Below, one piece after another: positions 7,326-31,869 of a DNA stretch of 61,543 nt. The notes below the pieces were generated by a model. That model searched no databases, had not been told where the DNA came from, and worked only from the letters and a program-made list of their open reading frames with translations. This DNA comes from Nitrospirota bacterium. GTDB taxonomy: Bacteria; Nitrospirota; UBA9217. A program made the translations under genes and the position numbers. Every line of letters begins with the position of its first letter. Position 1 is the stretch's first letter. The DNA lies in assembly GCA_029858565.1 (NCBI GenBank), contig JAOUEV010000013.1, positions 1 to 61,543 on the forward strand, written 5' to 3'.

Positions 7326-8155
7326 CTACCCTTTGACGCATGCAAGAGGTCGCACCCGGACGACTTTACGGGCAAGTCCTGCCTGGTGAGAGGCTTCGAC
7401 CACCTCGGATACGTCCTTGTAGGAACCAGGCGCCTCTTCCGCAATCCCGGAATAGGAATGTCCGCGAACAATGATCCCCTGCGTTTCAAGAGAACGTACA
7501 ATATCGCGGCCGTGCCATTGTTTCTTCGCCTGGGTACGCGACATTGCCCGTCCCGCGCCATGGCATGCCGATCCAAATGCTACTCCCATTCCCTCCTCGG
7601 TGCCCGCAAGAATGTAGGAAAAGGTGCCCATGGTCCCGCCGATCAGTACCGGCTGCCCAACATGGCGGTATTCCAGAGGCAGATCTGGCCGCCCAGGGCC
7701 AAAGGCTCGGGTTGCCCCTTTCCGGTGAACATAAACCCTCTTTTTCTTCCCATTGATCACGTGTGTTTCCACTTTACAGGTGTTATGACTGACGTCATAG
7801 AGCATCTTGAGACGCCCCTCAGGATAGATCTCCTCGAATATCTCTCTGATCAGATGCGTGATGATCTGTCGATTTGCTAGCGCACAGTTGATCCCCGCGC
7901 TCATTGCGCCGAAATAATCCTTCCCTTCCGGCGAGGTTATCGGAGCCGACGACAGTTCGCGGTCCCGGATAGGCAGTTGGAAACGCCTGGCAGCGCCTGC
8001 AAGTTTCTTCAAAGCATCGGTGCCTATCTGGTGTCCCAGCCCCCGGGACCCGCAGTGCAACGAGACGACCACATCATTCCTGCGGAGCCCCATGGCAAGG
8101 GCGGTTTTGTCGTCATACACTTCATCGATAGCCTGCACTTCGAGATAGTGGTTAC
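7326..8155 (-). pseudogene. rtcB: 3' part of host RNA ligase RtcB (interrupted gene)
   Basis: Begins (G)GT AAC CAC TAT CTC GAA GTG CAG = GNHYLEVQ; contains HCGSRG, YDVSHN, HRKGATRAF, SACHGAGR, EEAPGSYKD. Confidence 0.93.
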
Positions 8156-8161
8156 CGCCGC

Positions 8162-8237
8162 TTTTATTTAGTAATTATAATTCACGATATTGTTATTCAC
8201 GATATTTGTAATATTATATCGCGAATATTCATGATAT
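8162..8237. repeat. Element end A: terminal IR plus recombinase-binding box array
   Basis: TTTTATTTAGT (8162-8172); TTCACGATAT at 8181 and 8196, inverted ATATCGCGAA at 8216, TTCATGATAT at 8228. Confidence 0.8.
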
Positions 8238-8586
8238 TCATTCTAGCAGATAAAATTTAGTAACCGTTGATAATTCTGAAGGCACGTTCAAAATCTAATT
8301 TGGAGTATTTAAAACAAAAGTAAAGAGTGTTCTGCTTTTATATATTTGCTTGAGCGATGAAGAGTCACATTGTAATGCGCATCCCTGCGGAACTATAACC
8401 AATTTGATGCCATGAGGTGATTTCCAGTGTTCAGGATGTTTTTCCAGTTCGTCAATTGTCGACAGTACCAGAGACATTTAGCCTCAATAGGGGGGTAATA
8501 GGGCATCGAAATGGTCTTCAGCGCGATTAATTCTCAGGTTGGGCTTGTAGACAGTTTGCGATATGCTATTTCTATGGGAGCATTCG

Positions 8587-9111
8587 TTATCTCTCGGAGT
8601 CGACATTGAACCAGGGCCGCCACTTGCCGATCAACAAGTCTTCCTTAAAAAATCTTTCCGCAATATCTTCCGGTTTATAGACTTCATAACTGAATCCGAC
8701 GCTCTTGGCAATGAGCTCCAAAGGTTTCTTTTCGTTTGGAAAGATATGTTCAATTCCGTATCGCAACTGGCAGCTGGTCGTGGCCGCCTTTTGTTTTCTG
8801 CCTGTCTTGGGAATCTTGTGAACGCGGCCCGCAGAACCTCGAAGCAAGTGTTGCGCAAAACGCTTTCTCAAATTTGTTGATTTTCCGACATAGAGGCATG
8901 GATAAGCCAGATCTTTGGGCCACCAGTTCTTAAAATGAACGTCAACCTCTTTGCCTCCGGGACCTGCCAGAACAATGTGTGTATTTGCTGTCAGAAGCCT
9001 TGAGCGCTTATCGATCCACCAGAATGCATACACGCCAGGTTCTTCAGGTATTGAAAGCCGAGATCCATTGGTCAAGGTCTCAATACTTTTAATATCACGT
9101 CTTAAATTCAT
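8587..9111 (-). CDS. GIY-YIG nuclease family protein
   Basis: PGVYAFW...CLYVGKSTNLRKRFAQH; C-terminal E...RPWFN. Confidence 0.8.
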   Translation of the reverse strand: MNLRRDIKSIETLTNGSRLSIPEEPGVYAFWWIDKRSRLLTANTHIVLAGPGGKEVDVHFKNWWPKDLAYPCLYVGKSTNLRKRFAQHLLRGSAGRVHKIPKTGRKQKAATTSCQLRYGIEHIFPNEKKPLELIAKSVGFSYEVYKPEDIAERFFKEDLLIGKWRPWFNVDSER

Positions 9112-9127
9112 AAATTAGCCGCACATT

Positions 9128-10057
9128 TTATTCAGCGCTAGAAACAGATTCCATTGCCCTTTCGAACAATTTGGAAAAAGCCTTCACTTTGGTTTTACCA
9201 GGGTCAATCTTATATTCAGCCTGCTTCCACTGCTCGCTATATTTATCCATCTTGATGCCCTTCGGCTGGTTCTTTTCGGCGACAGATTTCGGAAGTTTAA
9301 AAAAGAACGAGAAAGACTTTGACCCGATCCAGTGGATGCCAAACGCATTAAAGAAGCCGTGCTTAAAACCACAGTAGTTCTTGTTGTATTTCATCTCAAG
9401 AGGCCAGCCTTTCTTCTTGACTAGCTTTCCCGTTTCCTCGGCGTAAGCGAGAAAGGCCTTTACGCTATTCTTGTTTCGATATTTCTCGTAGAAAGCGCGA
9501 TCATAGGTTTCAAGTCCTTTAACGGCTGCGGTCTTTTTGCTCTGCTCGGGCTCAAGCTTGTTCACGAGCAAGAAATGATTTGATCCTTCAACCCACCGCT
9601 TTATTTCGATCAGATCGACCTTATAATTGATCGTATTAATGAGCTCCAGCGTCGAACGTTCAATTGATGGGGCAATAATTATGACCCGCACATCATAGTT
9701 GTCCCAATTGACCTCGACTTCATCTTCGCGGCGCGGGGCTTCAAGCCAGAGATTCTTGATGGAATCGGGATTTTTCTGAGCCCAAATACCATAAGCGAGC
9801 ACTTGCGGGATGATGGATGAATTGACGGACACATTCTTCATTTCGATGATACAAACATTGCCCTCGCTGTCTATTCCGATGATGTCGGGAATGCCGGCCT
9901 TTTTACCGCCACGTATTTGGCGCTTGATAAGGATAATATCTTCGAGAATTTCCTTTGATTCAAAGATTACTTTTTCGAAAGCCTCTTCTGTATCAAAAGG
10001 CGTCGAAAGCAAATTAAGCGTTTTGTTTCCCTTCCTCTTCCAGAATAGGTTTGCCAT
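9128..10057 (-). CDS. PD-(D/E)xK nuclease, NucS/EndoMS-like N-terminus with uncharacterised C-terminal domain
   Basis: EEAFEKVI, IPDIIGIDSEGNVCIIEMK, QVLAY; GGAGG RBS before ATG 10057. Confidence 0.7.
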   Translation of the reverse strand: MANLFWKRKGNKTLNLLSTPFDTEEAFEKVIFESKEILEDIILIKRQIRGGKKAGIPDIIGIDSEGNVCIIEMKNVSVNSSIIPQVLAYGIWAQKNPDSIKNLWLEAPRREDEVEVNWDNYDVRVIIIAPSIERSTLELINTINYKVDLIEIKRWVEGSNHFLLVNKLEPEQSKKTAAVKGLETYDRAFYEKYRNKNSVKAFLAYAEETGKLVKKKGWPLEMKYNKNYCGFKHGFFNAFGIHWIGSKSFSFFFKLPKSVAEKNQPKGIKMDKYSEQWKQAEYKIDPGKTKVKAFSKLFERAMESVSSAE

Positions 10058-10096
10058 CTCGCCTCCATCGGCCATTGGACCACGGCCCGGGATCTC

Positions 10097-12763
10097 CTAT
10101 GATTTAAACTGACTCACCAAGCCGCTTATCGACATATTCTCCATGATCACGTCATGGGGGATGAGAACATACTCCCAGGGCTTGCTTCCATTTGATGCAG
10201 CATGATCAGAGGCATGACTACACCATTTTACAGCCGCCGCCTTCTTCGCCAGAACATCTGGGCTTTCCATGTCATTCCGTGCTTTAGGCTCGAGTATATA
10301 GATACATCGATCGGCTTCAGCTACAAAGTCAGGAACATATTCGAGATTCTCGACGCCAAACTTGTAGTAGATCTGAAACTGCCCCTTTGTCGGCCTGAAC
10401 CACTTGAGAACCTCACGGTCCAGGATGACAGCAAGCTTCCGTTCGGTATCAGAATGGAATTTCTGGTAAGGATAGAGGCAATGCTTGAATCCCCCGAATA
10501 CCATTTGTGCCATCCGGCTTTTATCATCGACCGTGTTGCGGAAATCGTAAACAGGACCGCCGTAGGAATACGCGGTGTCCCGGATTTCCTGAAATCCCTT
10601 GCTGACGACCACCTCGTAGTCTACTGCTTTTTCCCACTGATGTGCTTGCATCTGAACATGGATAAACGCGGCCAACTGCTTTTGGTGATAAACCAAGACG
10701 TTCTTGGCATCATCATCCGACAAGTACGAACGCAGATGTTTGACGACCTGGCCGGACAGATCATACAGCAGATCAGCATGCTCATCATAGGAGACGTCGT
10801 CAAAATCTATGAGATTGCGTACAAGATAGTCTTCCATTCGAAGTTCCTGCTGCCTGCTTCCTCCGAATGAAAGCGTCTCCTGCTCATTGGTCCGTAAGGC
10901 CTGTATCAGCAAGTCCCGCTCGACCGGCTGGTAATTGATCCCGGAACAATCGAGTATGAATTTATTGAATCCCGTAGTTGTCTGGCCCTTCGGCACAACA
11001 AGGATCCTAGGGATATCGATCGTCTGTTTGACGACAAGTTCGGCAGTTTTGGCAACGACAGCGGAGATATCAAGAGACTCCTTAACGCCTGGCAATGTTT
11101 GCTGCGCGGAGGCCACCGAGGCAGCAACCTCCTCAGCTATCCTCTTTTGGACCTCAGGTTTCAGAAGATGGCTGGCAGAAGGCAGGTTCTCGTATTTTTT
11201 CATAACACTCACAGCTGCCTGGGCTATCTTCTGCTCAGATTCATTTGCAAAAGCCGGAGCGGCAGGTGCTTCTGTTTGGCCGGCAATCGGCTTTTGCTGC
11301 GCAAGTCCTATTTGAGCTGCAAGATTCGATTGGACAACGAGAGTTTTCAATTTTTGATCCGCAGATGGCTCTAAAATGATCTGTTGCAATCTAATTGCTG
11401 AATCTGGTCTATTGGCCTCGTCGATAATCTCCTGGAAGCGGTCGTGAGCAACGATATTCAGGCGATCCACGCTGCTTACGCCGGTTCGTCGACCGTAAGG
11501 CAGTCGCAAACCGCGCCCGATAGACTGTTCGATAAGGACTCGTGCATTAGCGGCCCGAAGAGGGACGATGGTATAAAGGTTCGTTACGTCCCAGCCTTCC
11601 TTAAGCATGTTAACGTGAATAACGATCTCGGTTGGCTCGTCAGGACTCTCGACCTTCAGAAGGCGCTCGACCATCTCATCTTCCTCGGCCCCGGTCTTAC
11701 TTGAATCGACCTGGATCACCTTATCTTTGTATCGCCCCTCAAAGAACTTATCTGACTTGATGTGCTCGATCAACTTGCTCGCATGGGTTGTATCCCTGGC
11801 GATAATCAACATAAAAGGCTTCACGATCCGCTGGTCGGCCTGTCGGGCATAGGTTTCGAGCTCAACCTTGGTATTCTCATGGATCCGGATGCCATCTTCG
11901 AGCTTGATCTGCTCAATCTGCTCCGGAGAGAACTGCTTGGGATCAAAGTTCTTCTGCGTAACTACAGCCGGCTCTTTAACGAAGCCGTCTTCCATCGCTT
12001 TTGCCAGGGGATAATCATAGATCACGTTCTTGAATTTGAGGGGACCTTTCGGCGTTTCTACAAGGGGTGTAGCCGTCAGCTCAAGGCCGAGAATCGGCTT
12101 GAGTTCGTTGATCGCGCGCACGCCGGCCGATGCGCGATATCGGTGCGACTCGTCCATAATGAGAACAAGATCGTCTAGTCCGGCAAGATATTCGAAATAG
12201 CTTTCTCCAATGTACTCAGAGAGGCGCTTGATACGAGGCGATTTGCCGCCCCTGACCTCGGAATTGATCTTGGAAATATTGAATATATTTACATGGACCG
12301 ACAGATCGATACCGGGCAAGGTAGCGCGTATACCCCGGCCTGACGCATAGTTATCCCCGGTAATGATGCTGGGCGGTTCAACAGCGAACTCAGCGATCCC
12401 CTTGAACACATACTTCGAGGTATTTGGTGTGAAATCAGTAATAAGCTTATTGTAGATCGTAAGATTCGGTGCAAGGACGAAGAAATGGTTGATGTTGTGA
12501 GCAAGATGCAAATAACTGATAAATGCGCCCATGAGGCGTGTTTTGCCGACGCCTGTTGCCAGGGCAAAGCAGAGTGAGGGGAAATCTCGTTCAAAGTCTG
12601 TGACAGTCGGGAATTCGGATTTGATTGTTTCGAGCGCTGCTTGGATGTCGGCTCCCTTGCGAGGTGGTACGATCTCGGTAATACGGTCAAGAATTTCAAG
12701 TGAGCGTCTTTGTGGCTGCCGGAGGCTGAGCCGTCCTGAAATAGCATTCACATGACGGTTCAT
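10097..12763 (-). CDS. res: Type III restriction enzyme, Res subunit
   Basis: ALATGVGKT, MDESHRY, LELTATP, MLKEGWD, QSIGRGLR; C-terminal YVPDFVAE..EPK nuclease; overlaps mod (ATGA). Confidence 0.9.
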   Translation of the reverse strand: MNRHVNAISGRLSLRQPQRRSLEILDRITEIVPPRKGADIQAALETIKSEFPTVTDFERDFPSLCFALATGVGKTRLMGAFISYLHLAHNINHFFVLAPNLTIYNKLITDFTPNTSKYVFKGIAEFAVEPPSIITGDNYASGRGIRATLPGIDLSVHVNIFNISKINSEVRGGKSPRIKRLSEYIGESYFEYLAGLDDLVLIMDESHRYRASAGVRAINELKPILGLELTATPLVETPKGPLKFKNVIYDYPLAKAMEDGFVKEPAVVTQKNFDPKQFSPEQIEQIKLEDGIRIHENTKVELETYARQADQRIVKPFMLIIARDTTHASKLIEHIKSDKFFEGRYKDKVIQVDSSKTGAEEDEMVERLLKVESPDEPTEIVIHVNMLKEGWDVTNLYTIVPLRAANARVLIEQSIGRGLRLPYGRRTGVSSVDRLNIVAHDRFQEIIDEANRPDSAIRLQQIILEPSADQKLKTLVVQSNLAAQIGLAQQKPIAGQTEAPAAPAFANESEQKIAQAAVSVMKKYENLPSASHLLKPEVQKRIAEEVAASVASAQQTLPGVKESLDISAVVAKTAELVVKQTIDIPRILVVPKGQTTTGFNKFILDCSGINYQPVERDLLIQALRTNEQETLSFGGSRQQELRMEDYLVRNLIDFDDVSYDEHADLLYDLSGQVVKHLRSYLSDDDAKNVLVYHQKQLAAFIHVQMQAHQWEKAVDYEVVVSKGFQEIRDTAYSYGGPVYDFRNTVDDKSRMAQMVFGGFKHCLYPYQKFHSDTERKLAVILDREVLKWFRPTKGQFQIYYKFGVENLEYVPDFVAEADRCIYILEPKARNDMESPDVLAKKAAAVKWCSHASDHAASNGSKPWEYVLIPHDVIMENMSISGLVSQFKS

Positions 12764-14391
12764 GATTCATCCTCCTCGTCAAACAATCCCTGTTGCCCCT
12801 TCTTCGGAGGAGCTTTAGGCAGATTCTCAACCTGCAGGCTGTAATCGTCATGCCCCCATTCGCAGCGTTTCAGAACCGTATTCGGGATCTTCTTAATCGT
12901 CAAGTTTGAATACCGATCGGATTTCCCTCGGAATGCAGAGCATAGGACCAGAAGTGACCGCCCCACCCCGACTTCATCGGATAGAGCCTGGAGCTGGTCT
13001 TGGTTCAGGTTCTGGGTCGTGACATAAATGAAATCCTGCTCGTTCGAATGGCCATGCTGCCAGTAGATTGCATCGCTCGGAGCATAGGTGAATCCTTCAA
13101 GTTTGCAAAGAGCTTCTGCCAGCATCGCTGCATTGTACTCTTTATTGATGACCCAGTTACCCCATTTGTCCTTTTCTAGCAAAGATGGTGCAAGGCGGTA
13201 ATATCTGAATCCACCTCCACCCTTCCAGTCTACGGCTTCGGTAATGCCACCTGTGTCCTGACCGTCGATTACCTTTTTCATACGCGGAATGATATGCGTG
13301 TGGCAGTGCTCACCCAGCTCCACCATGATCCAGCGCCGTCCCATCTTATGAGCTACAGCGCCAGTTGTTCCGGAGCCGGCGAAAGAGTCGAGGACGAGAT
13401 CACCTTGTTTGGTAGAAATTTCAAGAACACGTTGAAGCAAACGCTCGGGCTTAGGGGTATCAAAGACATTGCGCGCTCCATACAAACCAATCATTTCTTT
13501 TTTCGCCTCATCTGTATGCCCGACTTCATCATGAGGCCACCAGTTATGTGGCGTCATGCCATCACGCACCTCAGATAAAAATAGTTTTAGTGCAGGAACA
13601 GTGTTACGCCCATCGCGTCCCCACCAAATACGGTTCTCTTCGACGTGACGTTTATGTGTATCAGGGTCATACTTCCAAGCTTTCTTAGTATTTTTAATAA
13701 TATCGCCCGTATTCGGATTGACGATGTCATAGCAAAGATTCCGCCGTTTTTCAGGAGTTGCCTGATTCAGATAATCAACCGCTTTCCACGGCCCACGAGG
13801 ATCATTGTCTGGATTGTTGTATCGCGCCGTAGACTCTTCACTTCTCGGAAGTAAGTTGTTTTGAAACTTATCGCTCTTGGCATAAACGAGTACAAAATCG
13901 CAAATTGTCGCGATTCCTTGATAATTATTGCTGACACTATATTTACGCTGCCATGTAACAGTAGTCTTGTAGTTAGTCCGTCCAAACACCTCATCGCACA
14001 ATACCTTAAGGTAATGGACTTCGTTGTCGTCAATTGTAATCCACAGCGAACCATCCTCCGAAAGCAACTGTCGAATAATCTCCAGGCGGTCCCGCATCAG
14101 CGACAACCAGATCGAGTGCTCAACACCATCATCATAATGCGTGAAGGCACTGCCTGTGTTGTAAGGCGGATCAATGAATATGCACTTCACCTTACCGGCA
14201 TACTCCTGCTCAAGCGCTTTCAATGCCAGCAAATTATCGCCGAAGATCAGTCGGTTATCGAAAATATCTTTCTTCGCCACCCGATGTGGAGCATGATAAG
14301 ACTTCTCTGGGCCTTCAAGCAAAATGCGCGGCTCCAGCTTCGGCCGGTTCTCTTTGCCGATCCATGTTAGTTCAAGTTTTTGTTTTTTCAT
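12760..14391 (-). CDS. mod: Type III R-M DNA methyltransferase, Mod subunit
   Basis: FIDPPYNTG, TPKPERLLQR, DSFAGSGTTG; adjacent to res. Confidence 0.92.
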   Translation of the reverse strand: MKKQKLELTWIGKENRPKLEPRILLEGPEKSYHAPHRVAKKDIFDNRLIFGDNLLALKALEQEYAGKVKCIFIDPPYNTGSAFTHYDDGVEHSIWLSLMRDRLEIIRQLLSEDGSLWITIDDNEVHYLKVLCDEVFGRTNYKTTVTWQRKYSVSNNYQGIATICDFVLVYAKSDKFQNNLLPRSEESTARYNNPDNDPRGPWKAVDYLNQATPEKRRNLCYDIVNPNTGDIIKNTKKAWKYDPDTHKRHVEENRIWWGRDGRNTVPALKLFLSEVRDGMTPHNWWPHDEVGHTDEAKKEMIGLYGARNVFDTPKPERLLQRVLEISTKQGDLVLDSFAGSGTTGAVAHKMGRRWIMVELGEHCHTHIIPRMKKVIDGQDTGGITEAVDWKGGGGFRYYRLAPSLLEKDKWGNWVINKEYNAAMLAEALCKLEGFTYAPSDAIYWQHGHSNEQDFIYVTTQNLNQDQLQALSDEVGVGRSLLVLCSAFRGKSDRYSNLTIKKIPNTVLKRCEWGHDDYSLQVENLPKAPPKKGQQGLFDEEDES

Positions 14392-14401: not shown

Positions 14402-16156
14402 TTACGCCTTTACTTGACGTCTAAGATTTTCTACAGCGGCGCGAATAGCGTCAGCATTGGAACATTTTTCAGACCATTCACGCCAGAAGTTCTTTGTCAA
14501 GCTAAGTGGTGTCGCAACTGGTTTATCTAGCTTAATTCTTGAGGGAAGCAATATGGAGTCGCCGAGTACTATCGCCTCACCAATATCGAGAAGTGGCAGG
14601 ACATCGGCTATTCCCGCCATGCTATCGGGCATAACTGATTTCACCGCGGACTGATCCTGCTCATTTGTCAGCCGTAATGCGATAAAATTGTTACACTGAC
14701 TTAAGATTGTTCTGCTCACATCAGATGGGCGCTGGCTAACTACGAGTAGCGCAAAACCATACTTTCTACCTTCTTTGGCGATACGCTCAAAAGTATCAAG
14801 AGCGCGTTTTGATGCAGCATCTGCATCAGCACGAACAGGCAGGTAAAGGTGGGCTTCATCACAGACAAGACAAACCGGTGTTCTCGAAGATGCTTGCATC
14901 CAAAATTGAACATCATACAAAACGCGGGCAAAAACACTTACTACAGTCGGCAGGACATCGGCAGGAACTTCTGAGAAATCGACTACCTTAATGCCTGATG
15001 CGGTCGTGCATGTAGTAGACAGAAAAGTAACTGCCTGACCTTGAAGCCATGTGTAAACATTTGACTCTTTCGGAGGCTGAAACAGAAATCCATAACGGCG
15101 ATCTTCAATTTTAGCTCGCAACCGGCTGATGAAGCGGGTAAGCTTGCCATTCCACTCGCCCTTTCTATCCGTTCCAGCGCGCGCTCCAGGCTCTCGCTCA
15201 TTGTCGAGCCGATCCAATTCTGTTACGACCGAAGCAAGATCGTATGGGATTGGCGAATCAACTGTGAAAGTAGCTTCCACTTCTTTCATTTTCTCTTCCT
15301 GCAATCTCTTTCGCTTACTTTCACCGACCAATCCAGTGAAGATCATCGCTTGATTTGGTGCGTTCTGGTCTGTTCGGTCTAATAACATGGTAAGCATTTC
15401 ATCACGATTAAGAAGCCAGTATGGCAAAAAGAGACTTTCTGGTTTCGGTTTAGCCAAGTCTCCTGGTCCAGCTACCTTAAAATACGCGGCATAGCCATTC
15501 TTTTGTCCTTTCGCGAGAGAAGCATACTCACCATGCATATCGAGCAATATAATATTCGAGTGGTTTAGCGTATTAGCTCTTTCGAGGAGTGCCGCAACTG
15601 TATAACTTTTGCCACTCCCGGTACTCCCTAATATCGCGGCATGTCGTTGAAAAAATCTGTCACCATCGGCGACAGCCTGAGCAGTCGGATCTATTGCGAA
15701 GTGACCCAATTTTAGCGCTTTATCCGTGGGTACATCCTGAGACAATACTCCCATGAACGCAGTTAGATTAGTACCTTGAATAAGGTGAGCAGGCTGATCA
15801 ATCTGTGGACAAGAATCGGCACCGCGTTTGAATGATGGGCCACCAGCACCATCTTTTGATCTATATGTCCCAACGAGGACCGCTCTAATTGTATCCTGAA
15901 TCTCTTCTGCCTGAGGACCAGCTTCCTCTTCGGCTCCTTCAGTCGCGGCAAGTGAATCCGATGGTAGTCGTGTCACGCGTTCTACAATTGAGATCAGAAA
16001 CTGATGACCAGTAGCGCCTTGTATGGCTATCAGGTTTCCTACCATCACTTGCTTGAGTAGTTCGTGGTCGTCAACGTGGATAAATACTCGCATTGTATCT
16101 ACAGACATTACTCTTCCAATTGGTTCCGACTCAAAAGACATTGCTGCATTTGGCAT
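14402..16156 (-). CDS. herA: HerA-family ATPase (Sir2-HerA defence system)
   Basis: HAS-like N-terminus, HAAILGSTGSGKS, LLDMHGEY, CDEAHLY, IAKEGRKYG, VSQRPSDV. Confidence 0.88.
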   Translation of the reverse strand: MPNAAMSFESEPIGRVMSVDTMRVFIHVDDHELLKQVMVGNLIAIQGATGHQFLISIVERVTRLPSDSLAATEGAEEEAGPQAEEIQDTIRAVLVGTYRSKDGAGGPSFKRGADSCPQIDQPAHLIQGTNLTAFMGVLSQDVPTDKALKLGHFAIDPTAQAVADGDRFFQRHAAILGSTGSGKSYTVAALLERANTLNHSNIILLDMHGEYASLAKGQKNGYAAYFKVAGPGDLAKPKPESLFLPYWLLNRDEMLTMLLDRTDQNAPNQAMIFTGLVGESKRKRLQEEKMKEVEATFTVDSPIPYDLASVVTELDRLDNEREPGARAGTDRKGEWNGKLTRFISRLRAKIEDRRYGFLFQPPKESNVYTWLQGQAVTFLSTTCTTASGIKVVDFSEVPADVLPTVVSVFARVLYDVQFWMQASSRTPVCLVCDEAHLYLPVRADADAASKRALDTFERIAKEGRKYGFALLVVSQRPSDVSRTILSQCNNFIALRLTNEQDQSAVKSVMPDSMAGIADVLPLLDIGEAIVLGDSILLPSRIKLDKPVATPLSLTKNFWREWSEKCSNADAIRAAVENLRRQVKA

Positions 16157-17196
16157 TAGAGTACTCCTTTATTGAACCCTTCGAGGTTCCAGAGTTGATC
16201 GTCCACAACAAGTTCCTCTCCGCTAGACGTAATAATACGAGTCCGATAATCCGTCGCCGAAACTGAGGTTAACACAATAACTTCTGAGTCTTTGCTATTT
16301 TCAACTATTTTCATAGCATTGGTTGTTAGCTCCTTTGCTATGATAAGAGTAGGTTTTGTAAGCTTCAATCCGGGACAAACATATTGCTCTAAGTGGTCGT
16401 CGTTAAAACCATAGCCGATAAACATTAAACGAGTTGCATTAGTGGCCGCTTTATTACCCGAAGTTCGTTGTTCATCAAAAGCCCACCGAAAGCTCTCTCG
16501 GTACTTACTCGCGCCGGGAGTAATGATAAGTGGTGCTTTCCCTATATTCACTGGGCACCGCACTAGTTTGCCATCTACTTCAAACCAATCTAAGCTACCA
16601 TGTGGTTTATGTACACAAAGACACCGCAGGGGTCTAAACGCAGCATTTTTCCCAGCATAGTATGCTTCTCTATGAGCATCTGCTGCTTTTCTCGGATCTG
16701 AATGACCATGTAGGTAACCGGTAAACCTAGAATTGACTCCGACTTCAGCTGCTTCTGTTGCAAATTCAATTAAGCGATCATAGTTGGGTGTGATGAGATG
16801 AAACTGCTTACCGGCTCTCATAAGGTGTTTAATAAACGTAGTAAATGGTAGCTGTCGCTCCCCGTTTAATACACGCTTAAATACACTCTGCTCTGCTTCA
16901 AGAATCAAGTCCGTAGTAATGGATACGATTGACTCAACGGTCGTTGATTTCAACGTAACTTTTTCCATTGCAGCTTCAAGATGATCCCCAGCATCTAGAG
17001 ATGCCACAATGGCATCCCAACCGGAGTCTGGCTCTGTCAAGAGTTTCTTGGGCATTTCTGCCTTTAGATATGCTGCAAGTGTTCCCATCCCCGGAACACC
17101 TTCTGCGATTGAAAGACCAGTACCAACAACCATGAGCAAACCCTCTTGAAGATGGTCCTGGAGACTTCTCACAATTGTCGTAATTTCAAGTGGCAT
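16156..17196 (-). CDS. SIR2-family NADase (Sir2-HerA defence system)
   Basis: VGTGLSIAEGVP, ITPNYDRLIE, HKPHGSLDW, FIGYGFNDDHL; translationally coupled to herA. Confidence 0.85.
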   Translation of the reverse strand: MPLEITTIVRSLQDHLQEGLLMVVGTGLSIAEGVPGMGTLAAYLKAEMPKKLLTEPDSGWDAIVASLDAGDHLEAAMEKVTLKSTTVESIVSITTDLILEAEQSVFKRVLNGERQLPFTTFIKHLMRAGKQFHLITPNYDRLIEFATEAAEVGVNSRFTGYLHGHSDPRKAADAHREAYYAGKNAAFRPLRCLCVHKPHGSLDWFEVDGKLVRCPVNIGKAPLIITPGASKYRESFRWAFDEQRTSGNKAATNATRLMFIGYGFNDDHLEQYVCPGLKLTKPTLIIAKELTTNAMKIVENSKDSEVIVLTSVSATDYRTRIITSSGEELVVDDQLWNLEGFNKGVL

Positions 17197-18476: not shown

Positions 18477-18506
18477 ATTCTGCTCCCTAAACACACGACA
18501 ACATGC

Positions 18507-23122: not shown

Positions 23123-23412
23123 TCCTAATATATTGCAAAGAACGGTCAATTTTGATTCGTACGTAAGCCATAGAATATATTAAATATTGTCTTTCTTCAA
23201 GCAATAAATTTGGCTCAACAAATAACGTCAATACTTTGCTGGCCGGAGCGTATTTTGTTAGGCAGGCTTCAATTGACTTGCAGATGAGCTAGAGCGAATG
23301 GCAGCACATGGTCCGGCTAGAGCAGGAAAACGGCTTCTGTGAACGCACAGGGGGTTTTTTTCAGGGATCAGGATACTTAGAAACGTCAGTGATTATCTCT
23401 GCCGTGCGGCCT

Positions 23413-24149: not shown

Positions 24150-24473
24150 ATGAAGACAACGGCAAAAAGATTACTGGGAGCAAGAATCAAGGAAATACGG
24201 AAGCTGAAGGGTTTTTCTCAGGACAAACTTGCGGAGAAAATCGATATCGACACCAAGCATCTTAGCCGCATCGAGGTAGGCGGCAGCTATCCTTCCCTGG
24301 ATACTCTTGATCGGATTGCCAAAGCCTTGGGCGTCGATATGAAGGATTTCTTTGAGGTGGTCGAGGAATCGAAAAAAGCTGATCTCGTTCGATCAGCAGT
24401 AAACCTCATAAAAGAGGCAGACGAGGCTAAGTTGAAGCTCCTCATCAAGATCGCACGTGCGATAGTTCGCTAA
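24150..24473 (+). CDS. XRE-family HTH transcriptional regulator (C-protein-like)
   Basis: LGARIKEIRKLKGFSQDKLAEKIDIDTKHLSRIEVG; GGAGG RBS. Confidence 0.9.
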   Translation: MKTTAKRLLGARIKEIRKLKGFSQDKLAEKIDIDTKHLSRIEVGGSYPSLDTLDRIAKALGVDMKDFFEVVEESKKADLVRSAVNLIKEADEAKLKLLIKIARAIVR

Positions 24474-24659: not shown

Positions 24660-25133
24660 TCATTTATCGAGTCCCTTTTTTCCATATATAATTCTTATTT
24701 TGCGTTTTGCAATATCCAGTTCTCCTCGGAGAACTTTGACTTCATGGTCGAGAGCATCACGGCAAGCGATGACTTCTTTTATTCTTTGACGCTCATTATC
24801 AAGCCGCTGCTCAGTTCTCAACAACCTTTTTGCAAGGTCATCGTTTTGACGCAGCAATTCATTAAATCTGTTTTCATCATAGACAATACTGCTTCGCAGA
24901 GACGATACCAGTATCTCCTTTGCACCAATACCAAACCGTTTAAGCAGAAATTCTTTTACATGCTGCTTACAAAACGTGGACGCAGCTAAACCAGATGTTT
25001 CTGCGATTCTCGACCGAGTGATAATACGACCTTCCGTCTTTAATAAAGAGACAGCAGCTTCTATTTTCTTATAAGTTTTCTCTCTATGGGCTTGCTGTAC
25101 CTCTTGGAGTTTCAGTGGTATTTTCCTAGGCAT
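24660..25133 (-). CDS. TnpC-like (DUF6262-like) recombination accessory protein
   Basis: KIEAAVSLLKTEGRIITRSRIAETSGLA HTH plus C-terminal coiled coil; last gene of the recombinase operon, as tnpC is in Tn554. Confidence 0.65.
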   Translation of the reverse strand: MPRKIPLKLQEVQQAHREKTYKKIEAAVSLLKTEGRIITRSRIAETSGLAASTFCKQHVKEFLLKRFGIGAKEILVSSLRSSIVYDENRFNELLRQNDDLAKRLLRTEQRLDNERQRIKEVIACRDALDHEVKVLRGELDIAKRKIRIIYGKKGLDK

Positions 25134-26730
25134 CGTCTCCTCCCTGTTCTTTAGACGCATTCATTACCATGCTGAGACTGATCTTATCAACTTGACTTTG
25201 AAAGAGGTTAGACATGCCTTGTGCATGCTCAGCCAAGCTCTTATTGCCCTTCTCGAGATGGAGGGAAGCACGTTCAAGCCATATGGCACACTGTTCCATG
25301 TAATAATCCTTGTTTTCAGCATCAGGAACAAGGAAGTCGCAATCAAGACACTCAAAAAGGTCACCTTTACATGAGGTGATGTCTGAGCAGATGCCTAATT
25401 TTCCAATGCGGTATGCTCTAGGGTTCCGAAGCAGTTTCATTTCTTTTTCGGGGGACAGATTCAGGATTCTTCCTCTAAACAGAATTGGCGTTCCTAGCTC
25501 ACCTCTTGCGCGTTTTTTTGCTGCAAGAGCTTTAACTTCCTTGCCCTTAACGTGCACGTAGGATGTATCAATAATCATCTCGTTGCCCTTATGCCCTGAC
25601 ATGTCACGTATTTCGACATAGCTAAATCCTTCATAGAGACGCTCCGTGATACCGTTGTGCCGAAAACAATGTGTAATGGCATCATAATATCCACCGTTTT
25701 CATCACATACGTTGAAATACTCTGAAACCTTCTTCATGCGCGTCCGCACGACAGGTCCCGTCAACACGAACGGACCAGTCAGGTTGTTATAAGAAGACCT
25801 ACAAGCCATCTTTCCATCCTTATACCGCGCTGACATCCTTTTATAAGGGGAAACCATTAAATATCCTTGAGACTCATCCGAAAGTTCGATTTGAAGATTA
25901 GTCGATACTCTTTGCTGTTCTTTTACCAGATCGAGTAAGAACTTTCCATGTCCCTTGTCGAGAATATGGATAAGCTTACTTTGCGGTTCGCGCAACTGGG
26001 CTGACGGTTTGTATTGAGGAATAGTTAAGACATAACCGTCTCTATATGGCCGAATACAACTAAGTTTGATAGATGTTATTTCCTGAACACGCGAGGGGAT
26101 ACTTCGAAGAATCCAATATATAAGTCGGTCCTCTAGAGGAAGATTGCTATTACGATAGATACGATCAAGTTGATCAAGGACGATGTCCGGAACAAGTCGT
26201 TCATTGTGCTGACGATCTAATTCGCTTCGGATAAACGGATTACCAGGTGCTACAGGATAATTAATGGGCATTTGCGGCCATGTTTGCATATCCTTGAAGA
26301 AGTTTGCCATTGCAGTCCAATAGATCTCTTTGGAAGCTTTCTTAATATCAGCACGTTCGTAGAGGCTTTCCTCATAAGCCTCAATAGTCATTCTGTTAAC
26401 ATCCGATAAATCTGGGGCACCGCATTCTTTTTCAAGAAAGATCAAAAAGTGGGCAATACCACTGACATTTAATGCCTGCGTATGTACAGCAATACCATTT
26501 CGGATCCTCAATATAACCCAGTAGCGAACTATTTCGCTGTATACCTCCGGGACACTCGCAAAGTAAATCTTGTAATCGTCGCTACTATGCCCCGCTGAGC
26601 GTTTGATAACATCAAAGAACCATATCCCATCATTAAAAGACGAGACAGTCGTTACTGAGGTCATAAAATTTCTTAGTTCTTCCTGGATATCAAAGGTAAA
26701 CTCGTCTGCAATTGCAATGTTTGGAAGCAT
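25126..26730 (-). CDS. Tyrosine recombinase 3
   Basis: IPSRVQEI (R), THCFRH (HxxR), MSGHK..DTSYVH (H,Y); C-terminal Cys cluster. Confidence 0.85.
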   Translation of the reverse strand: MLPNIAIADEFTFDIQEELRNFMTSVTTVSSFNDGIWFFDVIKRSAGHSSDDYKIYFASVPEVYSEIVRYWVILRIRNGIAVHTQALNVSGIAHFLIFLEKECGAPDLSDVNRMTIEAYEESLYERADIKKASKEIYWTAMANFFKDMQTWPQMPINYPVAPGNPFIRSELDRQHNERLVPDIVLDQLDRIYRNSNLPLEDRLIYWILRSIPSRVQEITSIKLSCIRPYRDGYVLTIPQYKPSAQLREPQSKLIHILDKGHGKFLLDLVKEQQRVSTNLQIELSDESQGYLMVSPYKRMSARYKDGKMACRSSYNNLTGPFVLTGPVVRTRMKKVSEYFNVCDENGGYYDAITHCFRHNGITERLYEGFSYVEIRDMSGHKGNEMIIDTSYVHVKGKEVKALAAKKRARGELGTPILFRGRILNLSPEKEMKLLRNPRAYRIGKLGICSDITSCKGDLFECLDCDFLVPDAENKDYYMEQCAIWLERASLHLEKGNKSLAEHAQGMSNLFQSQVDKISLSMVMNASKEQGGDDA

Positions 26731-26739: not shown

Positions 26740-27894
26740 CTAGCCCTTAATAACACCAAGAGGATCGAGTTTAACAATAATATCTACAAGGTCAGCCTGA
26801 GACGCTATCACAATATCAATATCCTTGTAAGCTCCATCCGCCTCATCTAAATCTCTAACTCCTCGAACAGCATGTATGATACCCTTATCGTCCAAACGCT
26901 TCTTTTCCTCTTCAAGATTCAATGTTCTCTCTGCTTGTTTGCGACCCATTTTTCGGCCTGCTCCATGAGAGCAGGATTGGAAACTTTCACTATTGCCTTT
27001 GCCGCGCACGATATAGCTAGCCGTCCCCTGCGATCCAGGTATAATACCAATTTCACCATCACGAGCAGATGTTGCACCCTTGCGGTGGACAATGACGTTC
27101 TTCCCAAAGTGGCTTTCCAACTTTGCGTAATTGTGCGCAATGTTTATCATTTCATCGAAAGTGCCACCCGTAGTATCGTAGACTATCTCAGCAATTCGGT
27201 TCATCATCAGCTTTCTATTAGCAAGAGCAAAATCAACCGAATATGTCATTCCGATTTGGTATGCCTGACCTATCGCACTATTTATCGGTAGTGATGCAAG
27301 ATCCCACGCCTTTGGTACAGATATGCGCATCCGATCATTAAGCTCAACAGCCTTCCTGTTGTAGAAATCAGCTACCTGTTTTCCGAGGTTTCGACTTCCG
27401 GAATGAACCATAACCCAGATATGCCCATCACTTCCCATAGAAAACTGAATGAAATGATTTCCGCTGCCCAATGTCCCAATCTGATGAAGAGCATGACCGT
27501 ATTCACGATCAACAATAATATCCGTATTGCCAGCAGGCATCAATACGGGATCCTGTCTATCTCGGTGCCTATTCATCCCAACAGGAATCCGCCTCCTGAT
27601 CTCACCAATTATCTTTTTTAATGCATCAACAGATATTTCATGCAGCGATGTCTTTGCTGCGCACATTCCACAACCGATGTCAACACCAACAGCATTCGGA
27701 ACGATCACGTCTTCAGTAGCCATAACTCCACCAATTGGCATCCCATAACCTTGGTGAGCATCAGCCATGAGAGAAATATGACGAAATGCAAACGGAAGAC
27801 GTGCAAGATTTCTAGCTTGTTCAAGTGCCCCAACTTCAAGCACATCACTCCAACTCTTGATCATCAAACCGCCTTCGACTTTGATTATCTTCAT
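26740..27894 (-). CDS. rtcB: Element-encoded RtcB RNA ligase (short bacterial type)
   Basis: MADAHQGYG, VGVDIGCG, GTLGSGNHF, VHSGSR, AHNY, HRKGAT, SCSHGAGR, DEADGAYKD; GGAG RBS before ATG 27894. Confidence 0.93.
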   Translation of the reverse strand: MKIIKVEGGLMIKSWSDVLEVGALEQARNLARLPFAFRHISLMADAHQGYGMPIGGVMATEDVIVPNAVGVDIGCGMCAAKTSLHEISVDALKKIIGEIRRRIPVGMNRHRDRQDPVLMPAGNTDIIVDREYGHALHQIGTLGSGNHFIQFSMGSDGHIWVMVHSGSRNLGKQVADFYNRKAVELNDRMRISVPKAWDLASLPINSAIGQAYQIGMTYSVDFALANRKLMMNRIAEIVYDTTGGTFDEMINIAHNYAKLESHFGKNVIVHRKGATSARDGEIGIIPGSQGTASYIVRGKGNSESFQSCSHGAGRKMGRKQAERTLNLEEEKKRLDDKGIIHAVRGVRDLDEADGAYKDIDIVIASQADLVDIIVKLDPLGVIKG

Positions 27895-27924
27895 GATCGA
27901 CTCCACGAATGACGACAACCCAAC

Positions 27925-29949
27925 TTAATTACTGCACTCATCTAATATCTTATTTAGGGCAGCACCATATTCGGCGAGCAACTTCTCCGCTTTTTGATAT
28001 TCGCGATAGAATCGGTATTCCTCTTCAGATATCCCAGACTTTTTATATACTGCTATAAACTCAGCAACTTCACGTTTTTGCGATTCGAAGAGAAGTCTCC
28101 ACTTCGCTTCATATTTCGGGCCTGTACAGAGGTAGGTACATATAGCACAATTAGTTCTTCCAACTCTTTTTCCACAGGGCCCTTCGCTTGCATGTTTTAT
28201 GCACTGTCCTAGTTCAACTTCTCGCTCTCCCAAGGCAAACTCGGCATACAGGACTTTACGTTCTTCTTCGCTAAATTGACTTAAGTGCTCTTCAGATATC
28301 TTTGTCATAAATTTCTTTTCAAAGAACTCATGGTTCATAGTAGCCAAATTCATTTTACGAACTTCAGCATACACACTATCTGTTGTCCTCTGACTAAGGT
28401 GGCCGAGAAACTGTCTTACTTCAATCGGAGATGCTTTATTTTCGACCATGTTCACCGCGACAGTTTTACGACATTGGTGCGAATTAAAATCCCAGATATT
28501 TCCATCATGATCCGTAATAGAATGTTTAGCAATAAGCATGCGAACTGGCAGTGTAAATCCTGTCGCACTAAGCACACTAATCTTACTCGTATAATCTGTT
28601 GTCTTTCTAAGAAAGATAAGTTTAGATTGTGCCAGTAACCGGAGATCAGCTGTCAGCCGTTCCTGTGCATGAATTGCATTGACCACGTCAAGATCTTTCA
28701 CTCCTATTTCATGATAGTCGGGAAGCCCTCTTTTGCGACGTTTCTTTAATATTTTAGGAGACACGAATCTAAGTATATGCATTCCAAGATCATCGTCATA
28801 CGTCAAACACCCTTCTTCAAGAAGAGATGCTTCCTGGTAGCGTAAACCTTGCCCCATCATGATTACTAAGCAGTTGCATACATCGTCGGGCAATTCCAGG
28901 CGATGTAGCAGTAGTTGTTCTACAACCTCCTCAGCAATGTATTGAGCTGAGTCATAATAGTCTTGCATGTTCTTAAAGCTAACACTTCTGAAAGGATTAG
29001 TTGAGATTGTCGGCTGTTCATTGAGCACTTTCTCTTCAAGTTGTATTAAGTAGTCCCACATTTGATTTAAAACCTTAAAATGGCCACGGATTGAAGCCAT
29101 CTTTAATTTTTTACCCTTGTACGATGTTGCCTCATAGGACAGATAGTTTAAGAGCTTTCTGACGTCAGTTATTGAGACAGCCGCAGGATAACTTACTCCG
29201 GCATTCTCCGACAAAAAATTGAGCGCTCTAGCTACCATACCGACAATATTATTGCTCCGGAAGCTATCAACTTTCTTAAACCACCTTTTTTTAGCAAGGT
29301 ACCGTTTGAATGCTATCTTGAAATGATGATTCCTTATTACCGAAAAATCAAAAGTTGCACTCTGCAGACTAGTTTCAGCATTAGTCCAGAAAACAGTCCA
29401 TAGATCTAGATCCAGTCGCATCGCATCGCTATTTGATAATGGCAACACCACGCGCTGCTTCCTTTCTTCATCGCCAATCACTTCATAAATGCACTTCATA
29501 TGCTTACGATAATCATCCCAGCTATCATCGTTAGCACCTGCCCGATAGGATTGAGCTGCCGCATTGAATACAGCATTGAAGAAAGAAGCTTCTCTGATGA
29601 TTATTCTTTTTTTCGTTAGTAGCGATGCTTGGCGCGACAAGTAATTGCGGAACGCAACTGGCCATAATGTAAAACCGACCCTGATAATTTTCGTTATACC
29701 GAAGCGCCGTCCTATTAAATCATGAATCGGCTCATCAGTTTCCAATCGGTCTTTCATAGCAAATAACAAATCTCTATAGATAGGCCCTATACTGCGTTCG
29801 TGACTTTTAATGAGCAGCAAAAATAAATCTTCCTCATTAAAATGATCCAGCGTTTCGAGACGTGAGAATGATTTGCACAGCTTATATATTGGCTGGCTCC
29901 TTCCTCCCCAATGTTTTGATTTATTTTTAACGATATCCAAATTGTTCAT
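27925..29949 (-). CDS. Tyrosine recombinase 2 (Tn554 TnpB-like size and architecture)
   Basis: GLRYQEA, SHQCRK, LGHLSQRTTDSVY; C-terminal Cys cluster. Confidence 0.88.
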   Translation of the reverse strand: MNNLDIVKNKSKHWGGRSQPIYKLCKSFSRLETLDHFNEEDLFLLLIKSHERSIGPIYRDLLFAMKDRLETDEPIHDLIGRRFGITKIIRVGFTLWPVAFRNYLSRQASLLTKKRIIIREASFFNAVFNAAAQSYRAGANDDSWDDYRKHMKCIYEVIGDEERKQRVVLPLSNSDAMRLDLDLWTVFWTNAETSLQSATFDFSVIRNHHFKIAFKRYLAKKRWFKKVDSFRSNNIVGMVARALNFLSENAGVSYPAAVSITDVRKLLNYLSYEATSYKGKKLKMASIRGHFKVLNQMWDYLIQLEEKVLNEQPTISTNPFRSVSFKNMQDYYDSAQYIAEEVVEQLLLHRLELPDDVCNCLVIMMGQGLRYQEASLLEEGCLTYDDDLGMHILRFVSPKILKKRRKRGLPDYHEIGVKDLDVVNAIHAQERLTADLRLLAQSKLIFLRKTTDYTSKISVLSATGFTLPVRMLIAKHSITDHDGNIWDFNSHQCRKTVAVNMVENKASPIEVRQFLGHLSQRTTDSVYAEVRKMNLATMNHEFFEKKFMTKISEEHLSQFSEEERKVLYAEFALGEREVELGQCIKHASEGPCGKRVGRTNCAICTYLCTGPKYEAKWRLLFESQKREVAEFIAVYKKSGISEEEYRFYREYQKAEKLLAEYGAALNKILDECSN

Positions 29950-31112
29950 TTACTTCTCGATTCCATATTGACGCGCCTACGAGCCTTTTCTGCAGCGTTT
30001 TTAATAATTACCTTACTTCGCAGATTTCTGTAATTCTCTAATGGCGCAAGTGATGCCCACCCAACCAGTTGGCGAATAGTTTCATGATTTTCGCCAGCTT
30101 CAAGCAAGCCCTGAACAAAAGTTCGCCTACCAACATGTGTTGCTACTTCAGAAGAATCAATCCCTGTTTTCTCTACGGCCGTCTTCAGAACACCCCACCA
30201 GTTCCGATATTTCACTGCCTTGCCGTAAGAGTTCTGACGTTTTTTAAGATTTAGAAACATCCACTCGAGATAATCACCAAGATCACTCTCGACATCAGCC
30301 CGTTCTGTTGTGATGTACTTATCAAGAAAGTGACCTGTTCGTATGTCGTGAAAGGCGACAGTACGTATTAAATCTTCTTCTGTACTGGGACGACCTTTTG
30401 AGCGTGAAGGTTTGAGTGTCAGCTCTCCTGCATTATACGATGAATACTTAACGCTAAGAACTTCGTCGATACGCATACCTTCACATAGCAGCATAAATAT
30501 TGATTTATCTCTTACTGTGTTAAATTGTTCAAGAATAGTCGTTATCTCTGAATTTGTAAGCCAATGTTTCTTATATCCAGATGGCTTGAGTCTCATGTGT
30601 TCAATATCGATAAACTCATCAGCTGACTTATCGTAAATCATGCCATATTTAAAACCTCGAGATGCTTTAAACCGTACTCTCGACTTCTTTTTTGCCGATG
30701 TCTGCGGTGAATAAATGCTAACGTATCCATCAAACCATCGATAGAATTCCTGAATCGCAGTGATTGTGCCAACGAGAGTCCGAAAGGTAATGTCGGAGTT
30801 GATTTTCAGCACCGTTTTATTACTGTGTAATCCGTATGCGATGTAATCTTTGAATGTTTCGAGATCAGCAACAGTCGCATCAAAATATTCTGTCTTGTGC
30901 ATATGAAGATAATTTAACCATGAGGCTAAACTGTAAGCATAAGTTCTCCCAGTTCCTGCAGAATTGGCGCTCTTCCTGTCTAAGAATTGATTTACAGAGT
31001 CAACTGGTAAAAAATCACGATATATATACCACCGCTGTAGATAACCATTTCTTTTTTTAGGGAGAAGGGCCTCCTTAACCAAATAGGTTGAAACTGTTAA
31101 CTGTCTACCCAA
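29946..31112 (-). CDS. Tyrosine recombinase 1 (Tn554 TnpA-like)
   Basis: SAM-like N-terminus (TGRTYAYSL), GMRIDEVL, SKGR, THVGRRT, LVGWASLAPLENY; TTG start with GGAGG RBS. Confidence 0.88.
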   Translation of the reverse strand: MGRQLTVSTYLVKEALLPKKRNGYLQRWYIYRDFLPVDSVNQFLDRKSANSAGTGRTYAYSLASWLNYLHMHKTEYFDATVADLETFKDYIAYGLHSNKTVLKINSDITFRTLVGTITAIQEFYRWFDGYVSIYSPQTSAKKKSRVRFKASRGFKYGMIYDKSADEFIDIEHMRLKPSGYKKHWLTNSEITTILEQFNTVRDKSIFMLLCEGMRIDEVLSVKYSSYNAGELTLKPSRSKGRPSTEEDLIRTVAFHDIRTGHFLDKYITTERADVESDLGDYLEWMFLNLKKRQNSYGKAVKYRNWWGVLKTAVEKTGIDSSEVATHVGRRTFVQGLLEAGENHETIRQLVGWASLAPLENYRNLRSKVIIKNAAEKARRRVNMESRSK

Positions 31113-31187
31113 AGTACCACCTCCATAACAAAGACTCAGAGAGACCGGTTTTTAGCTGAGCGGAGGTAATATATCACGATCACCAAC

Positions 31188-31216
31188 AAAAAAAAGACCA
31201 TTAAATTAATGGTCTT
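31188..31216 (-). terminator. Terminator-like hairpin inside the element end, upstream of the recombinase operon
   Basis: Minus strand AAGACCATT-AATTT-AATGGTCTT followed by a T-run. Confidence 0.6.
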
Positions 31217-31268
31217 ATGATATTCTATATCGTTAATTAAATATATCGTAATTAAAAACTAAAGAAAA
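31215..31268. repeat. Element end B: terminal IR plus recombinase-binding box array
   Basis: Minus strand TTTTCTTTAGT from 31268; ATATCGT boxes at 31227 and 31243, TTATGATAT at 31215. Confidence 0.8.
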
Positions 31269-31869
31269 CCGAGCCCAGTGTGCCCATTTCCCGATGCTGT
31301 CGCTTTTTGGCCGTGTCGGAAACCGCATCCGGATCAGCCCCTTCCACCCGGCCGTGGTTCTCTATATACTCCAGGTCCTCGGATACACCATATCCCCTCT
31401 TTACAGCCCACTCGGCCCCGCCCATCAGCATTTCGTCAATCTGAGCGCTGTTCAGCGCAATGAGACCTTCCGATCCGACCCCCGCAGGAATGCGGTTATA
31501 GAACTGGTCCACGAGCCGTTCCAGCTTTGGTGCGATCGCTTCCAGCGACATGCCTGTTTTCATGGTCCTGACCCCGCAGGAAATGTCGAAACCCACCCCT
31601 CCCATGGAAATGATACCCCCCTCTTCGGGATCGAATGCTGCGACCCCCCCGATGGGGAAACCATAGCCCCAGTGAGCGTCAGGCATTGCCATTGATGCAA
31701 GCTGTATTCCGGGAAGCATCGCAACGTTCGTGATCTGCTCCCGTACTTTTTCGTCCATTTCCAGGACAAGTTTTTCCGATGCAAAGATCCTCCCGGGCAC
31801 CCGCATATCGCCGGTCCTGGGAATCTCCCAGAGATGTTCGTTGATCTTGTCCAGTACTCGGATATCCAT
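31269..31869 (-). pseudogene. rtcB: 5' part of host RtcB (archaeal/archease-associated long type), interrupted
   Basis: MPDAHWGYGFPIGGV, GVGFDISCGVR; ends EMGTLGS at the element junction. Confidence 0.93.

Follow-up and report, generated by a model that had tools for sequence, protein, structure and literature searches.

A Tn554-related integrative element in the catalytic-motif codons of rtcB that carries an rtcB gene of its own

Introduction

Transposons of the Tn554 family, compared here as Tn554, Tn553/Tn552-II and Tn6674 of staphylococci and enterococci, insert at one conserved site inside a gene, duplicate no target sequence and have imperfect inverted ends; the recombination module of Tn554 has three genes. 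Tn552-II carries in addition a 'target-gene-like' gene (tgl), already proposed to rescue the disrupted target (in the account of PMC12486829). Two further groups that resemble the locus described here are the GInt elements and the SEs, strand-biased circularizing integrative elements which the description in PMC10214605 reports from Gammaproteobacteria only. Here we analyse a 61,543-nt contig of a Nitrospirota bacterium (JAOUEV010000013.1; this whole stretch of DNA is called the window) in which a 23.1-kb element splits the host gene for the RNA-repair ligase RtcB and itself carries a second, complete rtcB among its recombinase genes. In our judgement this is probably a rare Tn554-related, GInt-like element inserted in the GTLGxGNH codons of rtcB, and its internal rtcB likely replaces the ligase that was lost.

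Interruption of the host rtcB gene

The host rtcB lies on the reverse strand, directly downstream of an archease gene (31954..32385, -; PF01951, E 9.8e-44), and is present in two parts. The 5' part (31270..31887, -; ATG at 31869) ends in ...EMGTLGS and matches positions 1-152 of the Pfam RtcB profile (E 8.6e-50); the 3' part (7326..8155, -) runs from (G)NHYLEVQ... to the stop codon and matches positions 152-426 (E 6.3e-108). The preliminary description of this locus had placed the split of the archease-linked gene at 31269/8155, and both halves were confirmed there. In translation, the open reading frame (ORF) at 31887..31252 (-) reads ...REMGTLGS, then five foreign codons and a stop; from 8162 downwards on the same strand, the 3' frame reads SGGNHYLEVQ... 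and stops at 7326. Joining base 31269 to base 8155 restores a single frame of 476 codons from the ATG at 31869 (200 + 276), with no stop or frameshift in either half, just as had been claimed (in-frame rejoining to about 476 aa without a lesion).

The unbroken form of the gene is found in related genomes. All 11 loci from such genomes (L006-L016, three of them from the same genus as the window's host) have a single intact rtcB with GTLGSGNHYLE(V/A)Q at the split position and, like the window, an archease gene directly upstream of it; the 3' part of the host gene is 73-82% identical to 14 genes of the same family. A search of the host genome for rtcB found nothing beyond the two halves and the copy inside the element, so that this copy alone is intact. 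The break in the host ligase gene falls in the motif for nucleotide and metal binding; since it separates the metal- and GTP-binding halves of the ligase, the insertion is a knockout.

The sequence of the module was found in one public run, a sediment metagenome that is probably the source of the contig, and the Logan assembly of that run is independent of the one used here. A Logan contig of 18,213 nt extends from 14326 across the junction at 31268/31269 and beyond with 0 differences, and among the Logan matches listed none has a loose end at 31268/31269. The possibility of misassembly, raised in the preliminary description, was thereby met at this junction by an independent contig.

Ends and junctions of the element

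Measured from repeat to repeat, the element occupies positions 8162-31268, to which a 6-bp footprint (8156-8161) is added; its G+C content is 45.8%, against 53.6% in the rest of the window. Both ends consist of an 11-nt inverted repeat and, inward of it, a pair of ACGATAT repeats spaced by about 15 nt. The left terminal repeat, TTTTCTTTAGT (31258..31268, -), and the right terminal repeat, TTTTATTTAGT when read inwards (8162..8172, +), match at 10 of 11 positions. Next to the left repeat are two subterminal ACGATAT copies, putative recombinase binding sites (31227..31249, -); the right end has two copies on the plus strand together with an inverted ATATCGC (8184..8222, +).

The two hexamers at the junctions are not alike. 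The intA-proximal core, attL (GCTCGG; 31269..31274, -), is host sequence and includes the Ser codon found in all 11 related rtcB genes; the intA-distal core, attR (GCGGCG; 8156..8161, -), differs from it at three of six positions and has a codon for Gly in place of the host's Ser. In SE elements and in Tn552-II, as described in PMC10214605 and PMC12486829, the 6-7 bp of the target end up at the intA/tnpA side, and the far end receives 6-7 bp that had flanked the element on the left at the donor site. The present junctions have the same arrangement, that of Tn554-type elements: the 6 bp at attL are the host's and those at attR are not. Because they match the published rule, GCGGCG can be read as the probable footprint of a previous insertion, in an rtcB reading G-G-G-N-H. 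That variant of the gene is present at two related loci, L099 and the locus of genome G401, which are described below.

Recombination module and relation to known elements

From the left end and on the reverse strand, the order of the module is intA-intB-rtcB-intC-DUF6262, with intA starting 157 nt inside the element. Its genes encode a 388-aa, TnpA-like tyrosine recombinase (intA; 29946..31112, -; PF00589, E 9.7e-15), a large, TnpB-like tyrosine recombinase of 674 aa (intB; 27925..29949, -; PF00589, E 1.1e-8), a complete RtcB of the short bacterial type (26740..27894, -; PF01139, E 1.4e-107), a third tyrosine recombinase of 534 aa (intC; 25126..26730, -; PF00589, E 5.4e-4, below the curated cut-off) and a TnpC-like DUF6262 protein of 166 aa (24660..25160, -; PF19776, E 1.1e-4, likewise below the cut-off). 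The alignment of the IntA family shows no variation at R, K, H, R, W and Y, nor does that of 27 IntC homologues at R214, K241, H354, R357 and Y391; the catalytic residues are kept in all three recombinases. At third codon positions, the G+C content (GC3) of the five module genes, rtcB included, is 0.35-0.42, as compared to 0.55-0.64 in host genes and 0.61 in the 3' half of the host rtcB.

A tblastn search of plasmids with IntB reached an annotated Tn554 transposase B. BLASTP comparison with the proteins of a Tn554 copy (L130) then gave 24% identity between IntA and TnpA (E 1e-11), 23% between IntB and TnpB with the Cys-rich tail included (E 2e-18), and 33% over 40 aa between the DUF6262 protein and the third Tn554 protein, TnpC (E 2e-6); IntC matched TnpB at E 9e-6. 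Three of these matches (IntA, IntB and DUF6262) bear out the earlier view that this is a site-specific element of the Tn554 kind. In the Tn554 copy, a UPF0758 gene, which we take to be radC, lies directly upstream of tnpA.

With Tn554 the element shares TnpA-, TnpB- and TnpC-like proteins in the same order and the manner of insertion outlined in the Introduction. It differs in having intC as an additional gene after the TnpB-like and before the TnpC-like one, in using rtcB as its target, in residing outside the Firmicutes and in carrying anti-phage defence genes in place of drug resistance. Tn552-II likewise carries a gene that resembles its target; there, according to PMC12486829, the target-like gene follows tnpC, whereas here it lies inside the recombinase operon. 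The GInt elements, as PMC5385486 describes them, have a four-gene operon (three integrase-like genes and a small fourth protein) at one end of the island, are site-specific, have imperfect and variable flanking repeats, carry large cargo and occur in Firmicutes and other phyla; the present element resembles them, by description, in all these respects. By the same account GInts usually spare the target gene, inserting at its 3' or 5' end or between genes, whereas the present element cuts a catalytic motif. On the basis of gene content and order, we regard it as a Tn554-like module with an extra large recombinase, in the GInt-type ginABCD layout.

Two other classes were considered and set aside. 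With SEs the element shares four recombination genes, a 6-bp spacer, inverted end motifs and the lack of mobilisation genes; the SE order as given in PMC10214605 is intA-tfp-intB-srap, with a Tfp that lacks the catalytic RHRY, whereas the order here is ordinary, large, large and small, and IntC keeps its R, K, H, R and Y. RIT elements (in the description of PMC10214605, three recombinases of 315-410 aa, 34-bp inverted repeats and no fourth gene) differ from the present recombinases of 388, 674 and 534 aa, which are accompanied by a fourth gene and by inverted repeats of 11 nt. RtcB inteins are also selfish elements in conserved parts of rtcB, but they are spliced at the protein level and keep the ligase working, whereas the present element is a gene-breaking DNA island. 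The best NCBIfam matches of the internal RtcB were two 'intein-containing RtcB family protein' models, over their extein parts only.

Relatives and use of rtcB as a target

The family is rare, with 36 homologues of IntA in an index of 5.8 billion proteins. Pattern scans yielded 107 related loci, of which species genomes contributed 40 and metagenomes 67 (some sequences occur in both collections), and at all of them IntA is 29-39% identical to that of the window; closer relatives of IntA are the proteins P0002-P0010 (52-62% identical). No match to intA at E<=1e-20 was found in 400 other genomes of the host's phylum, and none in 63 other genomes that served for both its order and its class. A scan of viral contigs for the recombinase pattern of the family found none. 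Of the 107 loci, 70 show the junction of intB and intC, and at these intC is seen alongside intB; at 40 of the 107 a DUF6262 gene follows intC (E<=1e-4), completing the set of four module genes.

Searching the 107 loci by tblastn with both RtcB proteins of the window found rtcB at two of them. At L099, a metagenome locus, the sequences ...GGAACACTAGGTGGAG and GTGGAGGGAATCAT... enclose an element of 8,025 bp, which splits an rtcB of the short type after G-T-L-G-G; it is flanked by a perfect 6-bp repeat, GTGGAG (0 of 6 core positions differ), and its ends are TTATATG/CATATAA. The second, L026, belongs to G401, a metagenome-assembled genome of Anaerocolumna (Bacillota), in which 22,336 bp separate the parts of another short-type rtcB, the 5' part ending in G-T-L-G-G and the 3' part beginning with G-G-N-H. 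The ends of this element match at 12 of 13 positions and its hexamer cores differ at two of six; it is decaying, with one TGA and two TAA stops in intA, and intB in pieces. In all three insertions, the crossover hexamer has the same position: it starts at the second base of a Gly codon, spans the variable codon and stops after the first base of the Gly codon that follows.

In the IntA tree, L099 and L026 form one clade (support 99) and the window forms another with P0002-P0008 (support 99); the deep branches between the two are weak. Insertion at these codons in unrelated rtcB genes, seen in two elements of a sister clade, shows that the rtcB motif is a genuine target. As G401, a member of the Bacillota, is far from the window's host, the site works across hosts, and the proposal that the conserved GTLGxGNH codons serve as a broad-host site held for both of these short-type genes. 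Elsewhere in the family the neighbours differ: none of the 10 ORFs upstream of intA in other clades is RtcB, and among them are a methylase-like protein, a DDE transposase, an M23 peptidase, a chemoreceptor, a subtilase and AAA proteins. Targeting of rtcB is thus a trait of at least two lineages and not of the whole family. The preliminary description had suggested examining the flanks of recombinase homologues for split rtcB genes and for a co-occurring internal rtcB; the former were found at two of the 107 loci, the latter at none.

Further occurrences were sought by the junctions themselves. The window-type junction pattern had no match in viral contigs; the L099-type pattern had nine, none with an RtcB or recombinase homologue, and these were put down to chance. 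Of 401 genomes sampled from the order of G401, 133 have RtcB, and among the matches listed only G401 has a short frame starting at position 150 of the RtcB profile.

Several observations on the relatives may be recorded here. The G401 element (G401:C1:381836-404171; L128, L129 and L026) has about 14.9 kb of defence-like cargo between its left end and intA, including TIR/SEFIR, a YobI-like NTPase and DUF6236, and just upstream of intA is a second, degenerate stretch resembling a left end, which may mean that two elements are in tandem. At L099 the sole cargo (9415-10718) is an IS66-type fragment (TnpB_IS66 and a partial IS66 transposase) with a DUF3267 gene. One metagenome contig (L098 4221-15118 and L097) holds two modules of the family head to tail, in the order intA..intB-intC-DUF6262 and then a second intA-intB-intC, which looks like a tandem insertion at a regenerated site. 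In L051 (12962-16095) and L107 (13034-16167), intC is split by about 1.7 kb, and tblastn matches residues 32-138 and 142-524 separately. Genes resembling intB and intC at 27-35% identity are direct neighbours on large plasmids from the Bacillus cereus group (H1-H14, H26-H39), where they are annotated merely as site-specific integrases; a tblastn search of plasmids with intC retrieved records from Bacillus (16) and Legionella (1) alone.

Nature and proposed role of the internal rtcB

The internal RtcB is full length, at 384 aa from an ATG at 27894 or 392 aa from a TTG at 27918, and covers positions 1-87 and 136-426 of the Pfam profile. Its translation contains DIGCG, GTLGSGNHF, HSGSR, AHNY and SHGAGR, which we take to be the metal-, GTP- and histidine-nucleophile motifs of RtcB. 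It is of the ordinary short bacterial type, 63-73% identical to more than 100 database RtcB proteins. The gene begins 30 nt after the stop of intB and ends 9 nt before the start of intC, and its GC3 (0.39) is like that of the recombinase genes; because of this position and composition, it is probably co-transcribed with them. The tight fit in the operon and the module-like composition also argue for a settled acquisition and not for a recent pick-up from the window's host. The internal gene itself carries the GTLGSGNH motif (27447-27470), its hexamer there differing from the attR footprint at one of six positions, and this motif could serve as a target for another copy of the element; a single copy is present.

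The order of events that we propose is as follows: recognition of the inverted ends, ACGATAT repeats included, by the recombinases would lead to a circle, which would exchange strands with the GTLGxGNH codons of an rtcB gene across a 6-bp spacer. By analogy with Tn554 and the SEs, the 6 bp native to the target would come to lie next to intA, at attL, and the 6 bp from the previous site would go to the far end, at attR, where they would reveal that the rtcB of the last host read G-G-G-N-H. The host ligase would be severed between the half that binds metal and the half that binds GTP. Most likely, the internal RtcB replaces the ligase activity that the element destroyed; the role is a plausible one, parallel to that proposed for tgl, and the mobility of the element is likewise suggested by its sequence.

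A number of results weigh against this account, in whole or in part. The identities to Tn554 proteins are low (23-33%), and within the window's own clade (P0002-P0008, Geomonas terrae) the targeting of rtcB rests on a single element. No joints of a circle or of an empty site were found in the contigs of the one run, which drop rare forms and are silent on excision. Internal and host RtcB are only 38% identical and are of different subtypes, short and archease-linked long, so that they may not be functionally equivalent. The internal gene, moreover, has no counterpart in the relatives examined. The gap between intB and intC is 1,195 nt in the window, where rtcB fills it, versus -7 to 66 nt (median 26.5) elsewhere; none of the 70 relatives with both ends visible has room for a gene there, and neither of the two rtcB-targeting relatives, L099 and G401, has an internal rtcB. 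G401 has no other intact rtcB, just one partial match of 39 bits; it tolerates the loss without a replacement, and a rescue gene is thus dispensable for such a lifestyle.

The window's own clade points the same way. In Geomonas terrae, its only named member, IntC is TGU69923.1 and IntA is TGU69925.1; on the assumption that GenBank accessions follow gene order, a single protein lies in between, presumably IntB, and this relative appears to have no internal rtcB. IntC and IntA relatives of the window's clade share contigs, as matched by their sizes (10899, 12456, 7445, 54631 and 68432), and the best 120 RtcB proteins similar to the internal one all lie on contigs that differ in size from those carrying close intA or intC relatives, which is weak evidence. 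Among all relatives with readable DNA, the internal rtcB is unique to the window's element and is not a trait of the family. The preliminary description had envisaged a whole family that compensates with its own ligase; with no such gene in any of the 70 relatives or in L099 and G401, that generalization has to be given up.

The strongest alternative is that the internal rtcB is ordinary cargo, kept for its own benefit, for example for the repair of tRNA or rRNA cut by toxins (ribotoxins, colicins or abortive-infection nucleases); that it is the same gene as the target would then be coincidental or secondary. We consider this possible, if rather unlikely. It would agree with the defensive nature of the other cargo, with the difference in subtype between the two RtcB proteins, with the ability of rtcB-hitting relatives to manage without the gene, and with a report (PMC9223846) of an RtcB paralogue operon that protects E. 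coli from colicin E3. However, the gene is not where cargo would be: with its short spacers and its module-like composition, it sits in the recombinase operon and apart from the cargo. That an element should by coincidence carry the same gene family as the one it destroys is also hard to accept, the more so with the parallel of tgl in Tn552-II, and we therefore retain replacement of the lost ligase as the preferred explanation.

Position in the operon and the choice of the same target gene in two clades could also be taken to mean that RtcB joins or interferes with the chemistry of transposition, acting as a functional partner or antagonist of the recombinases and not simply as a conserved landing pad; the element would then disable the host's end-capping and sealing enzyme and install a version tuned to its own strand transfers. 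Tyrosine recombinases leave 3'-phospho-linked and 5'-OH DNA ends. RtcB is described as guanylylating DNA 3'-PO4 ends (in PMC4381079) and as ligating 5'-OH DNA strands in vitro (in PMC8051266), and the enzyme that frees the 3' end in the copy-out route is, per PMC10214605, unknown in prokaryotes. Yet the idea is pure inference, and all 70 relatives with a visible intB-intC junction do without an internal rtcB. Most members of the family, moreover, insert beside genes unrelated to rtcB, as the 10 upstream ORFs illustrate, and the conserved motif alone suffices as a reason for the choice of target; we think it very improbable that RtcB has such a part. Least credible of all is a chance insertion by a loosely specific element or a chimaeric contig, for although other clades adjoin unrelated genes and the module is found in just one public run, three independent insertions lie at identical nucleotide positions of three different rtcB genes, the halves of the host gene rejoin exactly and in frame, inverted repeats are present at both ends and an independent assembly crosses attL with 0 differences.

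Cargo and neighbouring genes

Beyond the module, the remainder of the element is, as indicated by profile matches, anti-phage defence cargo. Nearest to the module is an XRE-type helix-turn-helix regulator (24150..24473, +; PF01381, E 2.2e-17). On the reverse strand there follow genes for a DrmD-like SNF2 helicase (20276-23149, -), a BbrUII/HgiDII-like GHKL ATPase (18507-20264, -) and a DUF2130 protein (17202-18494, -), each recognized by profile matches; a SIR2-HerA defence pair (14402..17196, -; PADLOC SIR2 E 4.6e-101, HerA E 8.9e-228); the Mod (12760-14391, -; PADLOC MTase_III E 5.5e-224) and Res (10097-12763, -; PADLOC REase_III E 3.5e-221) subunits of a type III restriction-modification system; PDC-S18, which is NucS-like (9128-10075, -; PADLOC PDC-S18 E 4.9e-125); and a weakly matching GIY-YIG protein (8587-9111, -; E 1.3e-4). 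All the parts that had been listed for the insert (matched ends, three tyrosine recombinases, a TnpC-like gene, a full rtcB and defence genes) were found in it. Outside the element, a gene for a secreted, staphylococcal-nuclease-like protein (6718-7308) and the host rtcB converge at the latter's 3' end; such a neighbour is present at only two of the 11 related loci (L013 and L015).

Significance

Much about this element has precedent: its class, the footprint rule and the idea of a rescue gene are already known. New are rtcB as the target, the use of that target across distant hosts and rtcB subtypes, and the location of a full target copy within the operon of the recombinases. No publication was found that names rtcB as an attachment site, and rtcB does not occur in the main text of PMC5385486; supplementary site tables of that paper and of PMC10214605 may list it. 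The earlier impression of an undescribed combination therefore holds for the rtcB site, for which the literature found has no report, and fails for the rescue-gene idea, which is in print for Tn552-II (PMC12486829).

The finding adds to the poorly known Tn554/GInt/SE group a defined attachment site, the active-site codons of an RNA-repair ligase. One 6-bp crossover position is used in distant hosts, a Bacillota genome and the host of the window, and in both the long, archease-linked and the short types of rtcB. From the footprint at attR the sequence of the previous host can be read, so that elements can be traced between hosts. As the sole member of the family seen with a complete copy of its target in the recombinase operon, the element offers a system for testing whether the insertion is made harmless in this way, and the same system can be used to ask whether RtcB touches the chemistry of recombination; were that so, RtcB could supply the missing end-processing activity discussed for copy-out of the Tn554/SE type. 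A set of recombinases that recognises a short, nearly universal coding motif could also become a broad-host integration tool.

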